DNA from: an uncultured delta proteobacterium
Lineage (GTDB): Bacteria; Desulfobacterota; Syntrophia; Syntrophales; UBA2192
Assembly (NCBI GenBank): GCA_963810965.1
Contig: CAWEPT010000017.1
Span: forward strand, 55,741-119,740
Length of the DNA stretch: 64,000 nt
Reading direction: 5' to 3'
Positions 6,799 to 47,262 of the stretch are shown piece by piece (positions within the stretch are counted from its first letter, which is position 1; every line of letters starts with the position of its first letter). A program made the position numbers and the translations under genes. A model generated the notes under the pieces. The model did no database searches, had not been told where the DNA came from, and worked only from the letters and a program-made list of their open reading frames with translations.

Positions 6799-8373
6799 AT
6801 GTCGAAACGGGTCATCATCATCGGTGCGGGCCTTGCGGGGCTGACGGCGGCCCATGCGGCGGCAAGGCAAGGGGCAACGGTTCTCGTTGTCGACCGGGGC
6901 CCCATCGGAATCGGGACGAACTCGGTGCTGGCCAACGGATTCTTTGCCGGCCCGTCGGAAAAATACAGCCCCGATGACTATATCCGTGACACCCTCCGGG
7001 CGGGGCGGGGACTCAACCGGGAATCCATGGTGAGGCTCGTTGCCCGGGAGGCGCCCTCTGCGTTCCAGCGCCTGCGGTCAGCCGGGGTGCTCCTGAAAGA
7101 AAGGGGTGCGCAGCGCTGTGTCGTCTCCCCGGATCCCTCCGTGATTCCCGGCGTTGCCCTCATGAGAAAGCTGGCGGGCCTGGTCAAAAACCTCGACGGC
7201 GTTCATGTCCTCCCCGGCTTCCAGGTCACCGAGCTGCCCTGTCACAACGGCAGGGTCTGCGGCGTCCGGGGTTTCAACCGCAAGGGCGAGGAAATGGACA
7301 TCGACGCCCCCGCCGTGGTCCTTGCCGCGGGAGGCGCAGGGGCCATCTATCGCCGTCATGACAACCAGAAGAAGATCCTGGGGCAGGGATATGCCCTGGC
7401 CGCGCAGGCGGGGCTCGATCTCTGGGACATGGAGTTCGTCCAGTTCTTCCCGCTGGTTCTTGCGGACCCGCGGCTGCCGGCCCTGATCGTCTATCCGCCT
7501 TTTGCACGCGAGGCGAAGCTCGTCGATTCATCCGGTGAGAGCATCCTCGAAAAGCACGGTCTCGGGGATGTCAACGAGGCGATCGTCAAGAAGCGCGACT
7601 CCTTCTCGGCCCTTCTCTTCGAGGAGGCGCAGGCGGGGGGCGTTTTTCTCGACCTTCGCGAGGTTCCCGCTTCGGCCTGGGATGTTCATCCCCTGGCCAT
7701 CTTCAAGAGGCTTCGCTTCAATTTCAGGGGAAAGCCCGTGGCCGTTGCACCGGCCGTCCACTTCACGATGGGCGGTCTGAGGACCGGCGAGACGTGCGAG
7801 ACGGACATCGTCGGCCTTTTTGCCTGCGGGGAGATCCTCTGGGGGCTTCACGGGGCAAACCGGATGGGCGGCAACGCGCTGACGGAGTGTGTCGTGTCGG
7901 GGGCCGTTGCCGGGCGAGCTGCGGCCGAACGGGCCCTGGGTGAAATGCCCGTTCCCTCCTGCCGGGAAAAGCCGCGGCAGCTCCCTGCGGCGGGCACTGT
8001 GCCGGGAGCCGGTGAAATTCGGGACATCCTGTCGGCGATCCGGGCGACGGCCTGGGAGTGCGCGGGGATTGTAAGGTCGGACGAAGGGTTGCGCAGGGGC
8101 ATGGAGAGGCTCGAGGCGATCGAGAAGCGCCTGAAGCCGCTTGGGGCGGCCGGTCCCGGCGGGCGCGCCGTCCTGGAGGATGCCAGGGCAGGGGCCCTCG
8201 TGCTGCGCGCCATCCTGCAGGCGAGCCTCGGGCGCAGGGAGAGCCGCGGGAGCTTCCTGCGGAGCGATTTTGCGGATGAGGACGACGGCAACTGGCGCAG
8301 GAACTCCTGCCTGGGCTACGACGCGGACAAAAACGCCTTCACGGTGAAGTATCTCCCCGTCGAAGGCGCCTGA
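6799..8373 (+). CDS. FAD-dependent oxidoreductase, L-aspartate oxidase / fumarate reductase flavoprotein family
   Basis: Intact 524-aa ORF. Contains the dinucleotide fold IIIGAGLAGLTAA, plus HFTMGGL and LFACGE..GLHGANRMGGNALTECVV. Confidence 0.75.
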   Translation: MSKRVIIIGAGLAGLTAAHAAARQGATVLVVDRGPIGIGTNSVLANGFFAGPSEKYSPDDYIRDTLRAGRGLNRESMVRLVAREAPSAFQRLRSAGVLLKERGAQRCVVSPDPSVIPGVALMRKLAGLVKNLDGVHVLPGFQVTELPCHNGRVCGVRGFNRKGEEMDIDAPAVVLAAGGAGAIYRRHDNQKKILGQGYALAAQAGLDLWDMEFVQFFPLVLADPRLPALIVYPPFAREAKLVDSSGESILEKHGLGDVNEAIVKKRDSFSALLFEEAQAGGVFLDLREVPASAWDVHPLAIFKRLRFNFRGKPVAVAPAVHFTMGGLRTGETCETDIVGLFACGEILWGLHGANRMGGNALTECVVSGAVAGRAAAERALGEMPVPSCREKPRQLPAAGTVPGAGEIRDILSAIRATAWECAGIVRSDEGLRRGMERLEAIEKRLKPLGAAGPGGRAVLEDARAGALVLRAILQASLGRRESRGSFLRSDFADEDDGNWRRNSCLGYDADKNAFTVKYLPVEGA

Positions 8374-8410
8374 AAAAAAGACGGCACTGTATGTGCAGGA
8401 AGGCGATCTC

Positions 8411-8632
8411 ATGAGAAGGATTCTTTCCGTTGCGTTCCTGGTCGCCGCTTGCGCCCTCGTTGCGTGGCTCTGGTGGCCCCTGGCGACGGAGCTGCTCCAT
8501 GCGGGGGTTCCCGCCGATATCGATGACCACCGCGTCTCCCATCACATCTGGCTGACCGGCTTCATCTCCATCTGTGCCGTTTTCATCTCCCTGGGAATCA
8601 GGAACATCGGGGACAGGGACGGCGAAAGTTAA
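8411..8632 (+). CDS. Small two-TM membrane protein, paralogue 1
   Basis: Lies within ORF 8393-8632. ATG 8411 follows AGGAAGG. Shares LVAWLWW..EL..AG.P......LTGF with the next ORF. Confidence 0.5.
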   Translation: MRRILSVAFLVAACALVAWLWWPLATELLHAGVPADIDDHRVSHHIWLTGFISICAVFISLGIRNIGDRDGES

Positions 8633-8658
8633 CGCTGCAGGCAGCGGAGGAGACTTCG

Positions 8659-8868
8659 ATGAGCAGGCTCATTCGTTTCACGCTGGTGGCGGGGGCGGCC
8701 GCAATGCTCGCCTGGCTCTGGTACACGGCATGGCCGGAGCTCTTCCGGGCCGGGATGCCCTCCATCACCGAGGATGCCGATTTTGCGCTCCTGGTGCGGC
8801 TGACGGGATTCGTCGTCATCCTCGCGACCGCCCTTTATTTCGCGGTTAAAAATCTCATGAAGAAGTGA
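8659..8868 (+). CDS. Small two-TM membrane protein, paralogue 2
   Basis: 69-aa ORF with MLAWLWY..ELFRAGMP....RLTGFVVI, colinear with the upstream paralogue. Confidence 0.5.
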   Translation: MSRLIRFTLVAGAAAMLAWLWYTAWPELFRAGMPSITEDADFALLVRLTGFVVILATALYFAVKNLMKK

Positions 8869-9114
8869 TCCGTCAGCGGGAGCCGGAAAAATAAGTTCGG
8901 CAGGATATTTCGGGGTATCGGTTCGGAGTGAGAAAACAGGTTTAGTGCTTTGATTATGTCGGTACAGCTTACAGTGCATCCTGTGCAACAGGAATTACTT
9001 AATTATTTAATATAAAATAATATTTTTCGAAAATTCGTGTTTGGTTTTATTTCGCCCGCGGAAAAGTGTCGGTGGACTTTACATTCAGACTGCAAGTCCC
9101 CCTTTGTCGCATCC

Positions 9115-9140
9115 CTGCTCAATGCGCTTGAATTGAGCAG
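9115..9140. promoter_or_regulatory. Perfect 9-bp inverted repeat CTGCTCAAT-N8-ATTGAGCAG (candidate activator site)
   Basis: Read directly. Its centre lies about 95 bp upstream of the GG of the sigma54-like element at 9221. Confidence 0.4.
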
Positions 9141-9220
9141 CCGTATCAATTAAAATAGCAATACATTCGATTACTTGACACTGAAATGGGCGGCGCTCTC
9201 CTCTGCCTGCTTCGACCACG

Positions 9221-9236
9221 TGGTATGGAGATTGCC
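9221..9236 (+). promoter_or_regulatory. Sigma54-type -24/-12 promoter candidate for the plus-strand EPS operon
   Basis: TGGTATGGAGATTGCC compared with the consensus TGGCACG-N4-TTGCW. GG (9222-9223) and GC (9234-9235) have the canonical 12-nt offset. Confidence 0.45.
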
Positions 9237-9754
9237 TTATGATTGGACAAGAGAGAGAAGGAAAAGGTGTCGCGGGTCCGGGGTTGTCCAGCAATTCCCC
9301 TTCACCGGAGGCAATCCGGCTCAAGGAAATAATTCGTCAACCGATACAGATCATTGGAACAATGCATCGGTGAGTGCCCCCGGCATGTCAACAGAAACGA
9401 GGGGATTCCCGTATCCGCCACGCCTTCATGATTCCGAAATCCATACATAGAAGACCGTCCGTTTCCTGAACCCGGATGGAGACTGTGTGCGCGAGTGAAT
9501 ATCCGGTGTTCAAGCCTGGGATCAGAGCCTCACGGGGCATGACAGGGGGCTTTGCGGGAGAGAGGTACGTGCTTCTGTCTCGCAGGGCCCTCCGGATGGT
9601 CAGGCGCCATCACTCACGGCGCCTCGATGCCTTTTCAGTTCGTTCATGTAACTGAGAGGGCGTAAGCCTGCCTGCTGCACCTCGAAGCGGATACCTGCCT
9701 GATCGGAAAGCGAAGCACAACCCATCTCATGTCTGACCGGTTCCTCCTGATCGA

Positions 9755-11428
9755 ATGATGACGACGGATAGTCCATCCCCCAAGGTTTCCGCGATAGGCG
9801 TTGTCGCAGAAAAAAATGAACAAGGCATCGTCGAAGAATTCTTCGAATTATTCAAGACGCCTTGGGAATTCGCAAGTAGCGAAAAGTCTTACGACATTCT
9901 GCTGATAACTGCGGATACGGAAGATAAGATCGATGCGCCCGTCGTCATCCTCTACGGGAGCGGGAAAAGAAAGATCGATGAGCGCTGTGGGATTCGGCTC
10001 GCGAAGGGCAGGTCCGCGGTTCGCTATTGAGATGGCAGGGCAAGGTCGTTCCAATCTACGGGAAGGCGTCGGCTCTGGAGTCCCTCCGGGGAAGCCGTCG
10101 TGGAGATTCAAGGCACCCATGAAGCCGCCGGATTACGAATTGGAAATCAGGGCCGACCTCTCTATCGCTTCGGCTTCGATTTATTCCGGGAGGTGGAGCA
10201 TCTTCTCCGCTCGGGTCAGCCCGCCACAATCATGCTTCCATCCCCACTCTCGATATTCACATAGAGCTTCTCCGGGACTGCATTCTGTCGGCGGGTGTCC
10301 CGCTTGTCGAGATCCCCCCTTTTCCTCCGAACACCGCTTCATCGCGTGCCTCACCCACGACGTGGATTTTGTCGGGATCCGCCGTCACAGGTTCGATCCC
10401 ACGATGTTCGGGTTCATCTACCGGGCACTCTTCGGTTCGCTGGTCCGGGCGATGCGGGGTTCCCTGTCATGGAAAAAATTGCTGGCCAATTGGGAAGGCC
10501 GTTATCTCGCTGCCCGGCATCTATCTGGGTATCCAGAAGGACGTCATGATCCAGTTCGACCGCTATGCCGACATCGAGCGGGGTCTGCCGTCGACCTTTT
10601 TCCTCATCCCCTATAAAAACAGGCCCGGGATCGACCTGGAAGGTCGCACTACGAAAGGGCGTGCCGTCAAATACGACATCGGCGATATCGCCCCGGAAGT
10701 TCAGAAACTCCTCGCCCGCGGCTGCGAGATCGGTCTCCACGGCATCGACGCCTGGCACAGCATCGGAGAGGGGCCACGACGAGCGGATGCAGGTCTCCCG
10801 GATGATTGTCAAGGCCGGACATGGGCAGTCCGAATGCATTGGCTGTTCTTTTCGGAAGACTCTCCCGACGTGCTGGAGCAGGCCGGCTTTTCCTACGACT
10901 CGACAGCGGGATACAACGATACGGTCGGTTACAGGTCCGGCACGTCCCAGGCATTCCGGCTGCCGGGAACGGCGCTCTATGAGCTGCCGCTGCACATCAT
11001 GGATACGGCGCTCCTTTCCCCCGGACGGATGGCACTTTCGGAGGCCGCTGCATTCGAAAGGATCAAGGAAATCTGTTCCCATGCATCGGCAAACGGGGGG
11101 GCCCTCACCATCAACTGGCATCACCGCAGTGTGGGGCCTGAGCGTTTCTGGGATGATTTGTACATAAACGCTGCTCGGGGAGATGAAAAAGAACGGGGCA
11201 TGGTTTGCGACGGCACGGGACGCCGTCTCGTGGTTTGATAAGAGACGATCGGTTGTGTTTCGCAGGGTCGACAGGCGCGGCACGGAAATGCACATCCAAC
11301 TCACGTGCCCTTCCGGGGATGACACGCCCGGCGTTGTTTTGAGGGTTCATGCCCCTTCCCCGACAGCACTCTGCGTCATTCGTGAGCGGCAGAGGCAGGG
11401 GTGGAAAAGATCAGCCCGTGTATGGTGA
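9755..11428 (+). CDS. Polysaccharide deacetylase-like (NodB-homology) protein with an N-terminal extra domain (at least 3 frame changes)
   Basis: Reconstructed from ORFs 9755-10030, 9933-10616, 10369-11238 and 11183-11428. Motifs include CLTHDVDFVG, STFFLIPY, EIGLHGIDAW and ALTINWHHRS. Confidence 0.6.
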
Positions 11429-11483
11429 CCTCGACACCGTTGTTCCCATCCATTTGTAGATCATGGGCAAGAGGAGAACCTCG

Positions 11484-14250: not shown

Positions 14251-15378
14251 ATGACTATCCAACTCGTAGACCTGAAGAAACAATATGAATCGATCAAAAC
14301 GGAGATCGATGCCGTCATCGCGCGATGTCTGTCGAAAACCGCCTTCATTGGCGGCTCCTACGTCAAGGACTTCGAAGAAGCCTTCGCCCGTTTCTGCGGG
14401 GTCCGGCACTGCGTCGGCGTCGGGAACGGCACGGATGCCCTCTTTATCGCGCTCAAAGTGTCTGGGAATCGGAAACGGCGACGAGGTCATCGTCCCGGCC
14501 AACAGTTTCATCGCCACGGCCGAGGCGGTGACCCAGGCTGGCGCAAGAGTGGTCTTTGCGGACATCGACCCCGGGACATACAACATGGATGTCGCCCGGA
14601 TCGAAGACAGAGATCTCGCCGAAAACGAAAGCGATCATCCCGGTGCATCTCTACGGCCAGCCCGCCGACATGGATCCGATCCTGGCCCTGGCGCGAAAGC
14701 ACGGGCTGAAGGTGATCGAGGACGCCGCCCAGGCGCACGACGCAGAATACAGGGGACGCAGGGTCGGCTCGATCGGCGATTGCGCCTGCTTCAGCTTCTA
14801 CCCCGGCAAGAATCTCGGGGCCTACGGGGATGCCGGGGCGATCGTGACCGACGATGATGAGCTTGCCCGAAGGGCCAGGATGTTCGCGAACCACGGCCGC
14901 ATCGACAAGTACGATCATGAACTGGAAGGCATCAACAGCCGCCTCGATGCCCTCCAGGCCGCAATTCTCTGGGTCAAGCTCAAACACCTGCCGCAGTGGA
15001 CGGAGGCGAGCGCGCAGAACGCCTACCGGTACAACCAGCTACTGGCAGGCTCCGGGTTCATGACGCCATCCGAGATCGAAGGATATCCGGGCTGTCTACC
15101 ATCTCTATGTGATCCGGGTACCCGAGAGAGCTGCGGGGCGCGCTGCAGGCCCATCTGCAGTCAAAGGGGATTTCGACGGGCATCCATTACCCCATCGCCC
15201 TGCCCAACCTGAAGGCATACGCATACCTGAACCACTCGGCGGCGGCCTTCCCGGAGGCTTCCAAGGCATCCAGGGAAATCCTTTCCCTTCCATGTACCCC
15301 GAACTGCGGGAGGATGAAATCGAGTACATCGGGAAGGCCATCAACGCCTTCGCGGTCCCTGAACCAGGCCACCCGTGA
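14251..15378 (+). CDS. DegT/DnrJ/EryC1-family sugar aminotransferase, WbpE-like (at least 3 frame changes)
   Basis: Reconstructed from ORFs 14197-14709, 14285-14857, 14556-15212 and 15109-15378. Motifs include [37 protein letters not shown] and SLPMYPEL. Confidence 0.8.
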
Positions 15379-27955: not shown

Positions 27956-29824
27956 ATGAAGCAGGCAATCCTGGGCATATCGGCCTACTATCACGACAGC
28001 GCGGCGGCAATCCTGGTGGACGGCGAGATCGTCGCCGCCGCGCACGAAGAGCGATTTACGAGGAAGAAGCATGACCCGTCGTTCCCGCATGCACGCGGCG
28101 CGTTACGTGCTGGAGGAGGCCGGCGTCTGGAGTTCAGGGATCTTCTGGCGGTCGCGTTTTATGACAAGCCGTTCCTGACGTTCGAGAGACTGCTGGAAAC
28201 CTACGACGCTTTTGCGCCCCGGGGACTGGTCAGCTTCTGGTCGGCGATTCCGGTCTGGATCAAGGAGAAGCTGTTCATGAAGCGGATGCTCCGCGAGAGT
28301 CTCTGCCGAACTCGGGAAGGGGACGTGCCGATTTTCTTTCCGGAGCACCACCTGTCCCACGCGGCCAGCGCCTTCTACCCGTCCCCCTTCGAGGAGGCGG
28401 CGATCGTGACGATCGACGGCGTGGGCGAGTGGGCGACGACCACCATCGGGCAGGGCGCGGGGAAGCGAGATCACGATTCACCAGGAATTAAGATTTCCCC
28501 ATTCCGTGGGGCTGCTGTATTCCGCGTTCACCTACTACACGGGCTTCCGGGTCAACAGCGGGGAATACAAGCTGATGGGGCTTGCCCCCTACGGGAACAG
28601 CGGATGCGTCCCAGACGGCGGACTTCAAGTCGAAAATCGTGCGCGAGCTGGTGGACATCCGAGAGGACGGGTCGATCCTCCTCAACATGGACTACTTCGA
28701 TTATCGCGACGGGCCTGCGGATGGTCAACGAGGAGAAGTGGCTGGACCTGTTCGGGATCCCGGCCCGAGAAGCCGGAGACGGAGATTTCCCAGGACTACA
28801 TGAACATGGCGCTGGCCATCCAGCAGGTGACCGAGGAGATCGTGCTCCGGCTCTGCCGCACCGCAAAGGAAGCGCACCGGGAGCCAAAATCTCGTGCTGG
28901 CCGGAGGCGTCGCGCTGAACAGCGTGGCGAACGGCAAGGTGCTCAAATCGGGCCTTTTCGACGATATCTGGATTCAGCCCGCAGCGGGCGATGCGGGCGG
29001 CGCGGTGGGCGCAGCCTGTGCCGTCTGGCACATTTCGATGGGCAGGGAGCGCAAGACCGAGGACCGGCCAGGACGGGATGAAGGGTGCGTTCCTGGGGCC
29101 GGAGTACAGCGGAAGCCGGATCGAAAAGACCCTGCGCAGGTTCGATGCCCGGCCCGGCATTTCGAGAACTACGATGAACTGGCCGCCGACGGTCGCGAAG
29201 ATCCTGTCGGAGGGAGCCGTCGTCGGATGGTTTTCGGGCCGGATGGAGTACGGGCCCCGTGCCCTGGGAAGCCGGAGCATCCTCGGGGATGCGCGCAACC
29301 CCGAAATGCAGAAGAAGATGAACCTCAAGATCAAGTACCGGGAGGGGTTCCGGCCCTTCGCCCCGACCGTGCTGGAGGAGGATATCCAGGAGTACTTCGA
29401 TGTGGATCGTCCATCGCCATACATGCTCCTGGTCGTCCCGATCCGTGAGGACAAGAAGAAACCGGTTCCCGCCGATTACAACGACTGGAGCCTTTACGAT
29501 CGCCTCTATTTCCTGCGCTCCGACCTGCCTGCCATCACGCACGTGGACTATTCGGCGCGGATCCAGAGCGTCCGGCGCGACGTGAATCCGAGGTACTGGC
29601 AGCTGATCCGGGAATTCAAGAAGCTGACCGGCTACGGTGTCATCGTCAACACGAGTTTCAACGTGCGCGGCGAGCCGATCGTCTGCACGCCGGAGGATGC
29701 GTACCGCTGCTTCATGCGCACGGAGATGGACTACCTCGTCCTCGGCGATTACCTGCTCGACAAGAAAGAGCAGCCGCCGCTGCCGGAGACGAAGGACTGG
29801 CGGGCGGAATTCAAACTGGACTGA
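27956..29824 (+). CDS. NodU/CmcH-family carbamoyltransferase (at least 4 frame changes)
   Basis: ORFs 27956-28918, 28894-29448 and 28991-29824 plus connecting frames. Motifs include ILGISAYYHDSAAAILVDGEIVAAAHEERFTRKKHD, GRMEYGPRALGSRSILGD and NTSFNVRGEPIV. Confidence 0.85.
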
Positions 29825-39915: not shown

Positions 39916-41061
39916 ATGAATTTCGAGTTCAGTGAGGAGCAGCTGCAGTACAAGATCAACGCCGTTGAGTTTGCGAAGAAAAAACTCAACGATGACCTGA
40001 TCAGGCGGGATCGGGACGCCGCGTTCTCTCGCGAACTGTGGCAAATGTGCGCCGATTACGGAATTCTGGGTTTTTCGTTTCCAGAGCAGTACGGGGGAAA
40101 CGGAGCGGACATCGTCAGCACGATGCTGCTCATGGAAGGCCTGGGATACGGGTGCAAAGACAGTGGGCTGCTGTTTGCGCTAAACGGGCAGATGTGGTCG
40201 GTTCAGATGCCCATTCTGAATTTCGGCACCGAAGAACAGAAAAACCGGTATTTGCCGAAACTGTGCCGGGGCGAGTGGATCGGTGCGGACAGCATCACGG
40301 AGCCGGACTCCGGGTCCGACGCCTACAGCCTTCGGACCACGGCAATGCTGGAAGCCGGGGAGTACGTCCTGAACGGCGCAAAGACATTTTGCACGATGGC
40401 CCCCGAAGCAGACGTGTTTGTCGTGTTTGCCACCGTGGATAGGCGAAAGGGATTCATGGGTGTAACCGGATTCATCGTTGAGCGGAACGCGCCGGGCTTT
40501 ACCGTCGGCAAGGGCATCGAGAAGATGGGGCTTAGGACGGCTCCCTTCGCAGAGCTATTTTTCGAGGACTGCCGGATTCCAGCCGAAAACCGCCTCGGCA
40601 GGGAGGGAAACGGGGCGAAGATTTTCGATGACATCATCGAGTGGGAGCGGGGGTGCATCCTGGCAAGCTTCATTGGCGCGATGGAGAGACAGCTCGAGCA
40701 GTGCATCCGGTATGCCCGGGAGCGGAAGCAATTTGGAAAGTCCATCGGAAAGAACCAGTCCATAGCCAACCGTATCGTCGACATGAAGGTCCGGATGGAA
40801 ACGGCGCGGCTGATCCTGTATCGGTTGGCATGGACGAAAGAAACACACGGAAAAGCCCCGATGGAGGCAGCCATGGCCAAACTGTACCTGAGCGAGGCAT
40901 GGGTCCAGTCCTGCCTCGATGCGGTCCAGATCCACGGGGGGTACGGCTACACGACGGAATTCGAGCTGGAGAGGGACTTGCGGGACTCCATCGGCAGCCG
41001 AATCTATTCCGGGACAAACGAGATTCAGCGAAATATCATTGCCCGCTACCTGGGGCTGTAA
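39916..41061 (+). CDS. Acyl-CoA dehydrogenase-family flavoprotein (probably acts on a carrier-protein thioester)
   Basis: Intact 381-aa ORF with an ACAD fold (ITEPDSGSDA, NGAKTFCT, IHGGYGYT). The MCAD-position catalytic Glu in YEGT is Ser here (YSGTNEIQRNI). Confidence 0.8.
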   Translation: MNFEFSEEQLQYKINAVEFAKKKLNDDLIRRDRDAAFSRELWQMCADYGILGFSFPEQYGGNGADIVSTMLLMEGLGYGCKDSGLLFALNGQMWSVQMPILNFGTEEQKNRYLPKLCRGEWIGADSITEPDSGSDAYSLRTTAMLEAGEYVLNGAKTFCTMAPEADVFVVFATVDRRKGFMGVTGFIVERNAPGFTVGKGIEKMGLRTAPFAELFFEDCRIPAENRLGREGNGAKIFDDIIEWERGCILASFIGAMERQLEQCIRYARERKQFGKSIGKNQSIANRIVDMKVRMETARLILYRLAWTKETHGKAPMEAAMAKLYLSEAWVQSCLDAVQIHGGYGYTTEFELERDLRDSIGSRIYSGTNEIQRNIIARYLGL

Positions 41062-41240
41062 CCCGTCGGGCGGGAAGGGTGCGCAAGGCAAATGACGTAC
41101 CACATTTGGGGCTGGCAGGCTTGCGCCGCTGGAAGGAAATGAGGATGCGTTGCGCATCCGCAACGCAATGACCCCGGGCGGCACGTGACAGTTGCCAGAC
41201 GAACGGACGAATCGTACCCCTTCAAACGAGGTGATGATGC

Positions 41241-42880
41241 ATGCTTTACTTGTTGCACCAGCTTGTATCGGAAAGCGCTCTGAGATTTCCTGAACGGATA
41301 GCCGTTCGCTTTCAGGGCCGCGGCATCACCTATGCGGATCTGGAGAGCGAGTCAGGCAAACTGGCCCGGGTCCTCGGCGGAAATGGGCGTGAAGAGAGGG
41401 GACAGGGTCGGGATTCACTTGAACCGGTCCATCCACTCCGTCATCGGGGCCCTGGGGATCCTGAAGGCGGGGGCGGCGTACGTGCCCATCGATCCCATGG
41501 CTCCTGCGGCTCGCATCGACTACATCGTGAACAAGTGCGGGATACGCCATCTGATCACATCGCAGAAAAGGCTCGGGGCCCTGGAGGGAGTCTTTCCCTC
41601 GGGTGCCCCGCTGCAGGGAGTATTCAGTCATGGACGGCCGGGAATCCCGGCCGCAACCGTTCGGGTCGGCGGTCCAGGTCGATTGGGAGGAGGTCCGGGA
41701 CGGAATCCCCGACGGCGACCGAGATGCGGCGAGCCTGGATTCCGACCTTGCGTATATCCTGTTCACGTCGGGATCCACCGGCAATCCGAAGGGGGTCATG
41801 ATCACACATCGCAATTCCCTTACCTTTGTCGATACGGCTCACGATTTTTTCGGGATCGACAAGGAGGATCGGTTTTCGAACATCTGCCCTCTGCACTTCG
41901 ACATGTCCGTCTTCGATCTGTACGTAGCGTTCAAGGCGGGGGCATCCGTGGTCATCATCCCGGAGAGCGCGGCGATTTTTTCTGCGAAGCTGGCGGAAAC
42001 CATCGAAAAAGACAGAATCACCGTGTGGAACTCCGTGCCGTCGGCGCTCTCCCTCCTGGCCAACTATGGGAAGCTGGATCAGCACGACCTGTCGGGATTG
42101 AGGCTGGTTCTCTTTGCCGGCGAGGTGTTTCCTGTGAAATATCTGCGGCGGCTCAAGGAATGCGTCCCGGCGGCGAGGTTCTGCAATATGTACGGGCAGA
42201 CGGAGGCCAACACGTCGACTTATTACTGGGTCGACCGGGTTCCCGCGGACGACAGGCAGGTGCTTCCGATCGGCAAATCGCTCCCGAACTTCGACGTGTT
42301 TGCCCTGGACGAGGACGGCCGCAAGATCGAAGGGCCGGGACACGAGGGCGAATTGTTCGTGAGAGCCTCCTCGGTCGCCCGCGGCTATTGGGGGGACGAG
42401 GAAAGAACTCGGCAAAACTTCGTGCGGAACCCCCTGCTGCCGGACCTGAACGAGACGGTGTACCGGACGGGCGACCGGGTCCGGATGGACCCCGACGGGA
42501 ATTACGTGTTCCTCGGCCGCAAGGATCACATGATCAAGAGCCGGGGCTACCGGATCGAGATCGGGGAGATCGAGGCCGTGCTGCAGAACCATCCCGGCGT
42601 CCGGCAGGCCGTCGTCGTCCCGATACCGGACGATCTCATCGGCAACCGGATTTCCGTGCTGATCGTTCCCGCGGCGCGGGAAGGGATCGGGAAGGAGGAG
42701 ATCCTCGCCTACTGCTCCGGCCATCTGCCGAAGTACATGATCCCGGAGATCGTGGAGTTCCGGGACCGCCTGCCGACGACCTCCTCGGGAAAGGTGGACC
42801 GGGCGAAACTGGCGGCGGTGGAGAGGCCCATAGGAAATCGCGGCGCGAGAGAATGCAGGGCCGCGGGTCCACGGCGGTGA
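41241..42880 (+). CDS. Stand-alone NRPS-type adenylation enzyme (DltA-like) (2 frame changes)
   Basis: ORFs 41241-41801, 41332-42891 and 41603-42880. Core motifs seen: LAYILFTSGSTGNPKGV, HFDMSVFD, NMYGQTEA, YRTGDRV, GRKDHMIKSRGYRIEIGEIE and SSGKVDR. Confidence 0.85.
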
Positions 42881-42954
42881 ACATCCGGTGACCCGGTGAG
42901 CGCTGAACGGTGCGCTCGAACGAGTGCAAAGAATCCAGGGGAAAGGAATCGTCA

Positions 42955-45785: not shown

Positions 45786-47262
45786 ATGACAGAAAAGTTA
45801 AAAAAGGACGAACTCACCCAAAAGACGATCCGCGCCCTCTCGTGGAGCCTTCTGGAATCTGTCGGAGTGCAGACCGTGAGGTTTGCATTCGGGGTTGTCC
45901 TTGCGCGACTGCTTTATCCTGAGCAATTCGGGCTAATCGGGATGCTGTGGGCATTCATTGTGGTGGCGCAATCCGTCACCGACAGCGGATACGGTGCAGC
46001 CCTGATCCAGAAGCAGGAGGCGACGGACGTCGACCTCAATTCGGTCTTCTATTTCAATATCGTGATTGGGCTGGCTGCGATGGGTCTGATCTGCCTCATC
46101 GCCCCATGGATTGCAGCATTTTTCAATCAGCCGCAACTGACATCGCTGACGCGGGCTATGTCGGTCATCATCGTGCTCAATTCGATCGGGGAGATCCATT
46201 TTACGCTCATACACAAGAAGTTGGATTTCAAAGTGCTGACCAAAGTCAGCCTTACCGAAACAGCGATCTCCGGCACCATCGGCATTGCGTTTGCGTTCAT
46301 GAGTTTCGGCGTGTGGAGCCTCGTGGCCCAGCAGGTATCCGGTTCGATCATTCGCAACCTCTTGCTGTGGTGCTTCAATTCGTGGCGTCCGGCCTTCGTC
46401 TTCAGTTTTTAGTCTCTGCGGAAGCTATTCGGGTTCGGGTCGAGAATGCTTGCTTCGGGTTTGCTTGAGCAGATATTCTCAAATCTTTATCAGTTGGTGA
46501 TCGGGAAATTATTTACGGCGGCGGATCTGGGTTACTTCATGCGCGCCAAGACATTCCAGGAAATTCCGACAAACATCGCTGTCCGGCACTGGTCTCTCGG
46601 GTTGTATTCCCCGTTTTTTCCAGCATCCAGGATGATACGGCGCGTCTGAAGACCGGGTTGAAGAAAGCACTGACCACGCTTGTCATGATTCAATTTCCCA
46701 TGATGATTGGGATGGCCGTCGATTGCAAAACCTCTCGTATTGACTCTGTTGACGGATCGATGGGCGGAATGCATACCCTACCTCCAACTGCTGTGTTTTG
46801 CCGGCCTGCTCTATCCCGGCGCACTTGATGAACCTGAACGTGTTGATGGCGCTGGGCAGATCGGACCTGTTTCTCCGGCTGGAGATCATGAAAAAAATCC
46901 TGATCGTCATCAGCATCGCCGTGACCTGGCAGTGGGGCATATCAGCCATGATCTACGGCCTGATCGTCCTGTCCGTATTGTGTTTCTATCTGAACAGTTA
47001 CTACACAGGAATTCTGATCGGCTATACGTTGTCGGCGAGCAGACTCGGGACATGCTGCCCTATCTGCGTCATGGCCGTGCTGATGGGGGTTTCCGTGTAT
47101 GCCGCGGGACATGCTGCCGATGCAAGCGATTGGCAGATGCTGCTCCTGATCGAAATGACGGTTGGGATTGGCGGTGTATGTTTTCTTGTGCCGGGTTTTC
47201 CGGCTGGCGGCGTTCATGGAGATATGGGCGATGGGATGGAAGAAGGATACATGGCGACATGA
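45786..47262 (+). CDS. Wzx-like polysaccharide flippase (MOP superfamily) (at least 4 frame changes)
   Basis: ORFs 45786-46412, 46446-46649, 46707-47429 and 46798-47262. The N-terminus ..TIRALSWSLLESVGVQTVRFAFGVVLARLLYPEQFGLIGM is typical. AT-richer than its flanks. Confidence 0.75.

Follow-up and report, generated by a model that had tools for sequence, protein, structure and literature searches.

A variable glycan island in uncultured Syntrophales is headed by a conserved leader and a probable sigma-54-type promoter

The locus analyzed here is a 64-kb window (the whole stretch of DNA under study, to whose positions all coordinates refer) from the genome of an uncultured member of the Syntrophales. 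In it, a non-coding stretch of ~720 bp (8957-9678) lies between a conserved run of chromosomal genes, pfkB-nadB-sm1-sm2, and a polysaccharide cluster of ~41 kb whose genes all stand on the + strand, from 9.7 to ~50 kb. This stretch, hereafter the module, is conserved as a single unit in about 20 loci and carries, in this order, two direct repeats, a sigma-54-type -24/-12 element and a folded leader that closes with a near-invariant block (Table 1). From these patterns we consider it somewhat more probable than otherwise that 8957-9678 is a regulatory cassette heading a hypervariable, horizontally exchanged glycan/lipopeptide island of uncultured Syntrophales (Syntrophaceae/Smithella-like). A first-pass annotation of the region had proposed an AT-rich leader free of open reading frames (ORFs), with a sigma-54-type promoter and an upstream palindrome, at the head of a long polysaccharide operon; the features it listed (an inverted repeat, the -24/-12 element, a GGCGCC hairpin and an ATG at 9755) are all read in the sequence where it had placed them, and a one-strand cluster of the expected kind does follow.

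The comparison draws on homologous and related loci (numbered L001-L083). Searches with blastn and nhmmer found the region in L002, L004, L006 and L007, the genome loci with the full-length module numbering five, and a metagenome scan with a 23-nt pattern from the 3′ end of the module returned 20 further true loci and one chance match. Loci L063-L083 come from sediment and digester samples. In most loci the module aligns over its full length (window 8951-9678). The working alignment, A4, holds 18 sequences: 13 were obtained by the 3′-block pattern, and the five genome-derived copies were found through NadB and not selected by that pattern.

The -24/-12 element, for which the first-pass annotation had asked conservation in orthologous loci, proves to be the best-conserved promoter-like feature of the module. 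None of the 20 copies examined of the motif TGGYAYRRAGAWTGCY departs from the GG, the GC or the distance between them, variation being limited to TGG(T/C)A(T/C)(G/A)(G/A)AGA(T/A)TGC(C/T), and GTGG.A...AGA.TGC.TTA is invariant throughout the 18 aligned sequences; the GG/GC invariance extends to lineages whose nadB fourfold-degenerate sites are near saturation. The pattern TGGYAYN5TTGCH has two matches in the 64 kb, where 0.2 are expected. The other match (TGGTACGTCATTTGCC, 41087-41102, − strand) falls in the gap between acyl-CoA-dehydrogenase-like and adenylation genes. Alternatively, the operon might be driven by a sigma-70-type promoter such as TTGAAT-17-TAAAAT at 9128-9156, which would place the start at ~9163, or transcription might read through from nadB-sm1-sm2, the GG/GC block then being the site of another protein or part of an RNA. 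A consensus scan does return a 9/12 match at 9128-9156, its TAAAAT is largely conserved (TCA.TAAAAT, A4 columns 206-216), and no clear + strand terminator follows sm2. The -35 part, however, sits in the unconserved palindrome region and varies (CTGAAT, TTTTTT, CTGATT), three sigma-70-like sites in 1.8 kb are unremarkable when 1.0 ± 0.9 are expected, and the GG-N10-GC is invariant in the exact sigma-54 register, with activator-type repeats 150 and 260 bp upstream in what is the canonical layout. We hold a sigma-70 promoter or read-through to be unlikely, and 9221-9236 to be probably a sigma-54-type promoter, with a start predicted near 9247 (~12 nt past the GC) and activation from the two repeats by an unlinked bacterial enhancer-binding protein.

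The repeats themselves follow the pattern TGTCGGTA-N5-TTACA, which occurs twice and no more in the window, where chance would give 0.32. Repeat 1 is >90% conserved in 17 homologues, the GTCGG and TTAC of repeat 2 are invariant in 18/18 sequences, and the distance from repeat to repeat is exactly 110 bp in 18/18 loci despite the diverging sequence of the spacer; from repeat 2 to the -24 GG it is 150-154 bp in all loci (promoter plus repeat, as a pattern free of the 3′ block, is written GTCGGNANNNNTTACA-N94-GTCGG). Between the repeats lies a very AT-rich block whose sequence is itself conserved, beyond its composition (ATTACTTAATTA..TAATAT....TTTTTCGAAAATT, A4 columns 55-100), and which is presumed to be bendable or architectural DNA. 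The first-pass annotation was right about this block and not about an AT-rich leader, the block being regulatory DNA upstream of the promoter and outside the presumed transcript: GC content is 51% over 8869-9754 and 56.5% over that transcript (9247-9678), against 58.8% for the whole window. Nearer the promoter, an IHF-like site overlaps part of an invariant CTTGA (A4 columns 235-239 conserved) and matches in the same column with no mismatch in L002, L004 and L071 and with one in L073 and L076, which is weak evidence. With a rigid distal pair followed by a presumably bendable region, a flexible spacing and then the -24/-12 element, the geometry is that canonical for enhancer-dependent promoters.

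The upstream palindrome, by contrast, which had been put forward as a control element, fails the test of conservation in orthologous loci that the first-pass annotation had itself named as refuting. Chance would produce only 0.04 perfect inverted repeats of this kind (arms of 9 bp or longer) in the region, yet this one is degraded in L007, has neither arm in L002, L004 and L006, and has a right arm that most homologues do not conserve. We reject it as an enhancer, judge from this comparison that it is probably not functional, and read the two repeats, not the palindrome, as the candidate activator sites. A third copy of the repeat (GTCGGTATCTCTTACA), inverted and ~170 bp upstream of repeat 1, occurs in L004 (18308-18323), L065 (971-986) and L066 (3554-3569); the opposite strand near it showed no stringent sigma-54 motif in these three loci.

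The module has sharp limits on both sides. It starts at repeat 1, since homology to L002 and L004, which carry a 5.7-kb insertion upstream, begins at 8958, and it is conserved only as far as ~9678, beyond which the 5′ untranslated regions proper to the variable genes begin. The first downstream gene encodes the 555-aa deacetylase-like protein in some loci and, in others, a FemAB-like protein, a deacetylase of 325 aa or a phosphopantetheinyl transferase (PPTase) with a nonribosomal peptide synthetase (NRPS) after it; in every locus it lies on the same strand, 46-180 nt past the conserved block. The module is thus a constant head on variable gene sets. In L064 (3182-4661), L075 (670-4808), L080 (3301-7687) and L083 (999-3399; all in leader-strand coordinates), what follows the module is a PPTase and an NRPS of 1,084-1,233 aa, not glycan genes.

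Such conservation could in principle reflect mere relatedness, the module being a recently shared intergenic spacer without special function. Consistent with that, the leader body is less conserved than nadB synonymous sites in close relatives (0.64-0.67 identity, against 0.86-0.88 at nadB fourfold sites), and covariation in the leader is not significant. Against it, the invariant blocks persist where nadB fourfold sites are near-saturated (0.53-0.60), the 110-bp spacing holds in 18/18 loci despite substitutions and indels elsewhere, and identity just beyond the module falls to 0.25-0.39 where the first gene differs from that of the window (0.52-0.84 where it is the same). The fixed spacing and the identity comparison largely refute a functionless spacer, to which we give next to no credence. 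In distant relatives, with nadB fourfold identity of 0.53-0.54, the leader body is still 0.61-0.66 identical and, in L064 and L080, the part from the repeats to the promoter 0.66; the 3′ block is 0.76-0.88 identical throughout, in close and distant relatives. Since leader-body identity is similar for close and distant nadB relatives, the module does not share the history of nadB. It appears, from these identities, to move with the island by recombination, while constraint on its repeats, promoter and 3′ block keeps identity from sinking below a floor.

Over the region as a whole, no ORF with a conserved frame, start or stop was found on either strand across the 18 homologues, the ORFs present being short and mutually inconsistent, and the region is therefore genuinely non-coding, as the first-pass annotation had held from the window alone. 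The check across homologues mattered because the window has many frameshifts in its downstream genes. A frameshifted gene or small ORF was rejected on these grounds: neither frame nor length is constant for a minus-strand "MDELKRH" ORF and for a plus-strand GTG ORF after a purine-rich tract, and L004, L071 and L073 have lost the ATG. The ~500-nt untranslated leader that had been foreseen if the promoter is used holds up as well, with ~430 nt conserved and folding better than controls. For the single sequence the folding z is -3.59 on the + strand (0/100 shuffles as good) and -1.43 on the − strand; RNAalifold energies for 16 sequences, set against column shuffles that preserve conservation, give z values of -4.15 (+) and -3.31 (−), and each of three leader sub-domains has an alignment folding z of -3.2 to -4.0. 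In the consensus structure 88.6% of cells are paired, against 36-50% with partners slid, and there are 22 double-sided changes against 12.9 ± 3.6 in shuffles. Compensation is plausible in some helices, among them 9453-9461 with 9593-9601, which closes the 3′ domain ahead of the terminal hairpins, and the hairpin UGAACCCGGAU/AUCCGGUGUUCA; a distal stem is shortened in L064 and L078, with its base retained.

The leader matches no described RNA family: Rfam 15 (EAR and c-di-GMP riboswitches among others) gave no match with E up to 1 over 8000-11000 of the window, and none within the leader in eight homologous loci, where the sole match was a chance miRNA elsewhere. Two smaller candidates were set aside, namely CsrA-type GGA sites, whose two GGAUG motifs are unconserved and by eye serve better as helix strands, and a "GNRA tetraloop" after the hairpin (GUAA, GCAA, GUGA, GGGA), which needs only one-position transitions and is too weak. 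The purine-rich 5′ end of the leader (GAAAAGGUGUCG, 9261-9280) is complementary to CGAUGCCUUUUC (9617-9636), the 5′ arm of the terminal hairpin, and also to a CCUU at ~9425, and a 7-12-bp version of the same complementarity recurs in the other homologues. It may reflect an alternative pairing or a switch, or else a chance match of purines with pyrimidines.

Of the two hairpins near the 3′ end, the GGCGCC one had been noted earlier as a GC hairpin followed by T residues and a possible means of leader-level control. It is not conserved, its 5′ arm being deleted in three lineages (L075, L080, L083), and the CCTTTT run does not directly follow the stem but starts at 9630, 6 nt past it; with no + strand terminator-like site called in 8300-10100, the hairpin and T run were rejected as an attenuator. 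The near-invariant stretch is instead the ~45 nt at 9630-9674, the best-conserved part of the transcript, which lies within and just past the terminal hairpin. Of the 16 pairs of that stem, four are G-U and ten never vary; two vary, but only on one side and with pairing preserved (UA/UG, GU/AU), and in a few sequences four pairs, most of them outer ones, do not form. The five genome-derived copies agree over the 3′ block except at five or six transition sites, in L006 with a leader body only 49% identical to that of the window.

The same 3′ boundary bears on two other explanations. One is a free-standing non-coding RNA of ~430 nt, transcribed from the sigma-54 promoter as far as the terminal hairpin, with the island genes served by their own promoters in the variable 46-180 nt. 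The abrupt end of conservation at ~9678, just past a stable 16-pair hairpin and whatever gene follows, would suit such an RNA, as would the strand-specific folding signal; but the hairpin has no U tract and coincides with no called + strand terminator, the next gene keeps its strand and proximity in every locus, and no conserved promoter-like element lies between block and genes, which makes a separate RNA improbable. The other takes the 3′ block for a DNA recombination site and not an RNA element, with inverted arms TTCAGTT/AACTGAG around a 9-bp variable spacer at which cassettes are exchanged. The block does sit exactly at the junction of constant and variable DNA, its arms are invariant while the spacer varies at three positions, and a copy of the element stands on either side of the first gene in L072 and L078. 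Yet the scan of island ORFs turned up neither an integrase nor a recombinase, there is no cassette array, the second copy is confined to one lineage with no further copy in the window, four G-U stem pairs fit a + strand RNA hairpin, and ordinary homologous recombination in the conserved head accounts for the junction; a recombination site is on this evidence very improbable. No rival fits the invariant GG/GC register and the 110-bp pair as well as a sigma-54 promoter does. The second copy in L072 (6482-6580, −) and L078 (1131-1229, −), a degraded version of the last ~90 nt of the leader between the deacetylase first gene and an acyl-carrier-protein gene, has three stem pairs broken without compensation and is probably the scar of a recombination event. 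That the 3′ element recurs within operons was rejected, since copies of this kind occur only in these two loci.

Table 1. Features of the locus, in window coordinates
Feature	Position	Strand	Remarks
nadB	6799-8373	+	Pfam NadB; upstream of sm1 and sm2
sm1	8393-8632	+	small membrane-protein gene, 79 aa
sm2	8659-8868	+	small membrane-protein gene, 69 aa; final conserved chromosomal gene ahead of the module
Direct repeat 1 TGTCGGTACAGCTTACA	8957-8973	+	TGT-N11-ACA format; candidate distal activator site, ~-282 from the predicted start
AT-rich block	8990-9050		16.4% GC; between the two repeats
Direct repeat 2 TGTCGGTGGACTTTACA	9067-9083	+	candidate proximal activator site, ~-172 from the predicted start
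Perfect inverted repeat CTGCTCAAT-N8-ATTGAGCAG	9115-9140		lineage-specific
IHF-like site ATTCGATTACTTG	9165-9177	+	two mismatches to WATCAANNNNTTR; ~-77, between repeat 2 and promoter
Probable sigma-54-type promoter TGGTATGGAGATTGCC	9221-9236	+	GG 9222-9223 (-24), GC 9234-9235 (-12); TGG-N9-TTGC register
Non-coding 5′ leader, predicted to be structured	9247-9678	+	~430 nt; 5′ domain ~9264-9440, 3′ domain, terminal hairpins
GGCGCC-N9-GGCGCC hairpin	9603-9623	+	variable, dispensable
Terminal hairpin GCCUUUUCAGUUCG...UGUAACUGAGAGGGC	9629-9661	+	followed by GUAAGCCUGCCUG, to 9674
First island gene	9755-11453	+	orthologue of a 555-aa polysaccharide-deacetylase-like protein; at least nine small indels here

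PfkB, like NadB, was identified by Pfam; the window NadB, for which an exact look-up returned no record, is 91-93% identical to proteins from metagenome-assembled genomes of uncultured Syntrophaceae (e.g. UBA2192, UBA5744), and the order pfkB-nadB-sm1-sm2-module is kept in L002, L004, L006, L064, L069, L070, L073, L074, L076, L077 and L080, with no sm1 match in L007. Upstream synteny persists down to 68-70% NadB identity. The sm1 and sm2 products are adjacent and hydrophobic, share ~30% identity with each other, have no Pfam family and stand next to nadB clade-wide. Four relatives that have no module (L005, L008, L011, L032) also have no cluster at this position, nadB/sm being followed directly by genes for an exonuclease, a cNMP-binding protein and an ABC-F protein; as the window counterparts of the cNMP-binding and ABC-F genes lie at ~58-61 kb, and the module-less relatives thus join nadB/sm to genes beyond the cluster, module and ~41-kb cluster together form an island at a fixed chromosomal position. 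Insertions between sm2 and the module occur in L069 (3968-5209, −) and L002 (12100-17700): those of L069 and L077 carry an IS256/Mutator-family transposase, and the 5.7 kb in L002/L004 encode an aldo-keto reductase with Fe-S domains, an alpha/beta hydrolase, an SRPBCC (polyketide cyclase/dehydrase-like) protein and a GNAT protein. In the two closest relatives the contig breaks off at the edge of the module or a little way into it (L001 at window ~8964, L003 at ~9027), as is expected of a strain-variable island. A viral origin was rejected, with no match among viral contigs.

Within the island are genes for glycosyltransferases, two DegT aminotransferases, hexapeptide acyltransferases, GFO-type oxidoreductases, a Wzy-like polymerase, a Wzx-type flippase, a carbamoyltransferase, an acyltransferase-3, FemAB-like proteins, and a PigA/RedW-like prolyl-carrier-protein dehydrogenase with an adenylation enzyme. 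The last two adjoin at 39916-42891, the dehydrogenase being of the L-prolyl type at 460 bits, just below the 500 cut-off, and the pair suggests a pyrrole-2-carboxyl or similar acyl decoration of the glycan. The first island gene begins with an ATG that matches the N-terminus of the intact 555-aa orthologue in L006; tblastn recovers it in pieces in three frames, the indels are seen in the DNA alignment to L006, and its assignment is backed by a THDVD motif and by a VimE-like deacetylase match below the family cut-off. Frameshifts run throughout the island, 9755-50000 (e.g. 9755-11453, 14285-15212, 27956-29824, 45786-46412), and the DegT, carbamoyltransferase and Wzx genes are split or truncated, with the flanking housekeeping genes pfkB, nadB and ABC-F intact; either the consensus is of low quality over a strain-variable island, or the island is decaying.

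In light of these observations we propose that RNA polymerase carrying sigma-54 would form a closed complex on 9221-9236, while an unlinked enhancer-binding ATPase would occupy both repeats, which would behave as a single rigid unit; helped by a bend in the AT-rich spacer, and perhaps by IHF at ~-77, this activator would loop to the promoter and open it, so that transcription would proceed from near 9247. More speculatively, the folded leader, mainly its 3′ block and hairpin, could act on the elongating polymerase or on the transcript, whether by making transcription resistant to Rho or to termination or by governing the processing or stability of the RNA, and such action would let one promoter serve ~41 kb; the conserved head would also supply the homology for island swapping by recombination. 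An antitermination-type function of the leader is the more speculative part of this model. That the leader, above all 9629-9674, is a new class of cis-acting RNA that modifies the elongating polymerase or blocks Rho for ~40-kb glycan/NRPS islands, as a processive antiterminator that is independent of protein or uses a novel factor and would be the functional counterpart of EAR, put or JUMPstart in uncultured syntrophs, with the 110-bp repeat pair a new enhancer architecture, is a conjecture that we put forward as doubtful.

Several observations weigh against this model. Neither rpoN nor an enhancer-binding protein (by GAFTGA, Walker A or RpoN-box motifs) was found in the 64-kb window or the close loci. 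The -12 element ends in C or T where the consensus has A/T, TGGTAT differs from TGGCAC at two positions, and a sigma-70-like sequence with a conserved TAAAAT stands just upstream. Most of the leader body must be weakly constrained or have a separate history, because in close relatives it has diverged more than nadB fourfold sites. The covariation across relatives that was to establish the leader structure is modest: column-shuffled alignments yield 10-23 compensatory pairs in RNAalifold, against 15 in the real one, and covariation is for this reason not decisive. The invariance of the 3′ block is in part one of ascertainment, as 13 of the 18 aligned copies were obtained with a 20-base pattern from that very block. 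Internal terminator-like sites in the cluster occur at chance level, so that there is no shown need for antitermination; tblastn with E. coli RfaH and NusG found no NusG paralogue below E = 0.5 in the window or any locus, and resemblance to the ops element in the leader is likewise at chance level. Since these specific versions (ops, a NusG paralogue, internal terminators) all failed, the role of the leader is one that we infer only. Finally, because the cluster is full of frameshifts, it may not be expressed here at all. As to the activator, a locally encoded one was also sought in the inserts upstream of the module (L002/L004, L069) and rejected, these holding metabolic genes and the IS256-family transposase, and the literature on rpoN in Syntrophus offered nothing usable. 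These points notwithstanding, the sequence comparison indicates a genuine promoter cassette of the sigma-54 type, and with it a conserved leader.

In methanogenic degradation the Syntrophales have a key role as partners, and surface polymers are important in the aggregates that they inhabit; to our knowledge, no member of this clade has been cultured. If the cassette works as inferred, its promoter, candidate enhancer sites and leader would offer a defined and conserved handle on the switching of a whole surface-glycan island, and the leader would be a candidate new RNA family. The 23-nt pattern, with its 20 true loci to one chance match, can serve as a sequence tag for variable islands in metagenomes, and the locus adds a glycan island that appears to be exchanged between lineages together with its control region, as O-antigen loci are.

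Among known systems, sigma-54 and an enhancer-binding protein control the syp locus of Vibrio fischeri (SypG, with an upstream enhancer) and Bep of Burkholderia (BerB), and sigma-54 activator sites usually lie 80-200 bp or more upstream, often with IHF or a bent region. Sigma-54 promoters are, moreover, strongly associated with exopolysaccharide genes (PMC3162934). The present locus resembles these in its -24 GG/-12 GC ahead of a large polysaccharide cluster, its repeated candidate sites >100 bp upstream and its presumably bendable or IHF-like region; it differs in that no activator gene was found nearby, in that the sites are two 17-bp direct repeats (TGT-N11-ACA) at a rigid distance, and in that a single promoter appears to serve the whole ~41 kb, followed by a 500-nt leader. 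The PEP-CTERM/exosortase loci with the sigma-54 regulator PrsK/PrsR share with it an exopolysaccharide-type cluster with FemAB-like and deacetylase genes and a sigma-54-type promoter, but in the published cases RpoN and PrsR act on genes for PEP-CTERM proteins and not on the biosynthesis operon (PMC1569441, PMC9850573). Such a system is not supported here: among ~45 window ORFs, a set that did not include every small ORF, neither Pfam nor NCBIfam matched an exosortase (EpsH/XrtA), a PEP-CTERM protein or PrsR, and the FemAB-like proteins score 169.8 against the TIGR03019 cut-off of 260.

Leader elements that recruit antitermination factors are common in long glycan and antibiotic operons (PMC7819879), as in the JUMPstart/ops leaders, which head O-antigen and capsule clusters of Enterobacteria and act together with RfaH, or the brp leader of V. 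vulnificus (PMC7819879, PMC7593976). Shared with JUMPstart/ops are a conserved non-coding element in the 5′ leader, its place at the constant edge of a hypervariable glycan cluster in a fixed chromosomal position, and a long operon with one promoter; the conserved element is, however, ~45-430 nt here and not 39 bp, and no NusG paralogue is found nearby. The ops/RfaH system itself was rejected, the best match to the ops 12-mer GGCGGTAGnnTG being GGCGTAAGCCTG (9659-9670), whose two mismatches fall at bases that RfaH reads; ops-like 12-mers with two mismatches number 51 in the window, where 55 are expected.

The eps-associated RNA (EAR) of Bacillus subtilis is a comparable RNA element, of an eps operon. 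Further leaders of this kind are those of the B. fragilis capsule loci, with UpxY, and the leader hairpins of LoaP (PMC7819879, PMC12691694). Like them, the present leader is predicted to be structured, and in those systems an RNA fold in the leader or within the operon is believed, or has been shown, to sustain elongation by the polymerase over long polysaccharide or antibiotic operons; the functional likeness is drawn by analogy only. Whereas upxY and loaP adjoin their targets, no NusG-like gene is adjacent here, and neither in sequence nor in structure does the leader match EAR or another Rfam family. With sigma-54 control of exopolysaccharide genes, and a long leader on a long operon, already established, the gain over these systems is incremental; two features deserve note, the rigid 110-bp pair of candidate enhancer sites and the conserved leader, of a kind not described before, with which an exchangeable glycan island of this uncultured clade begins.

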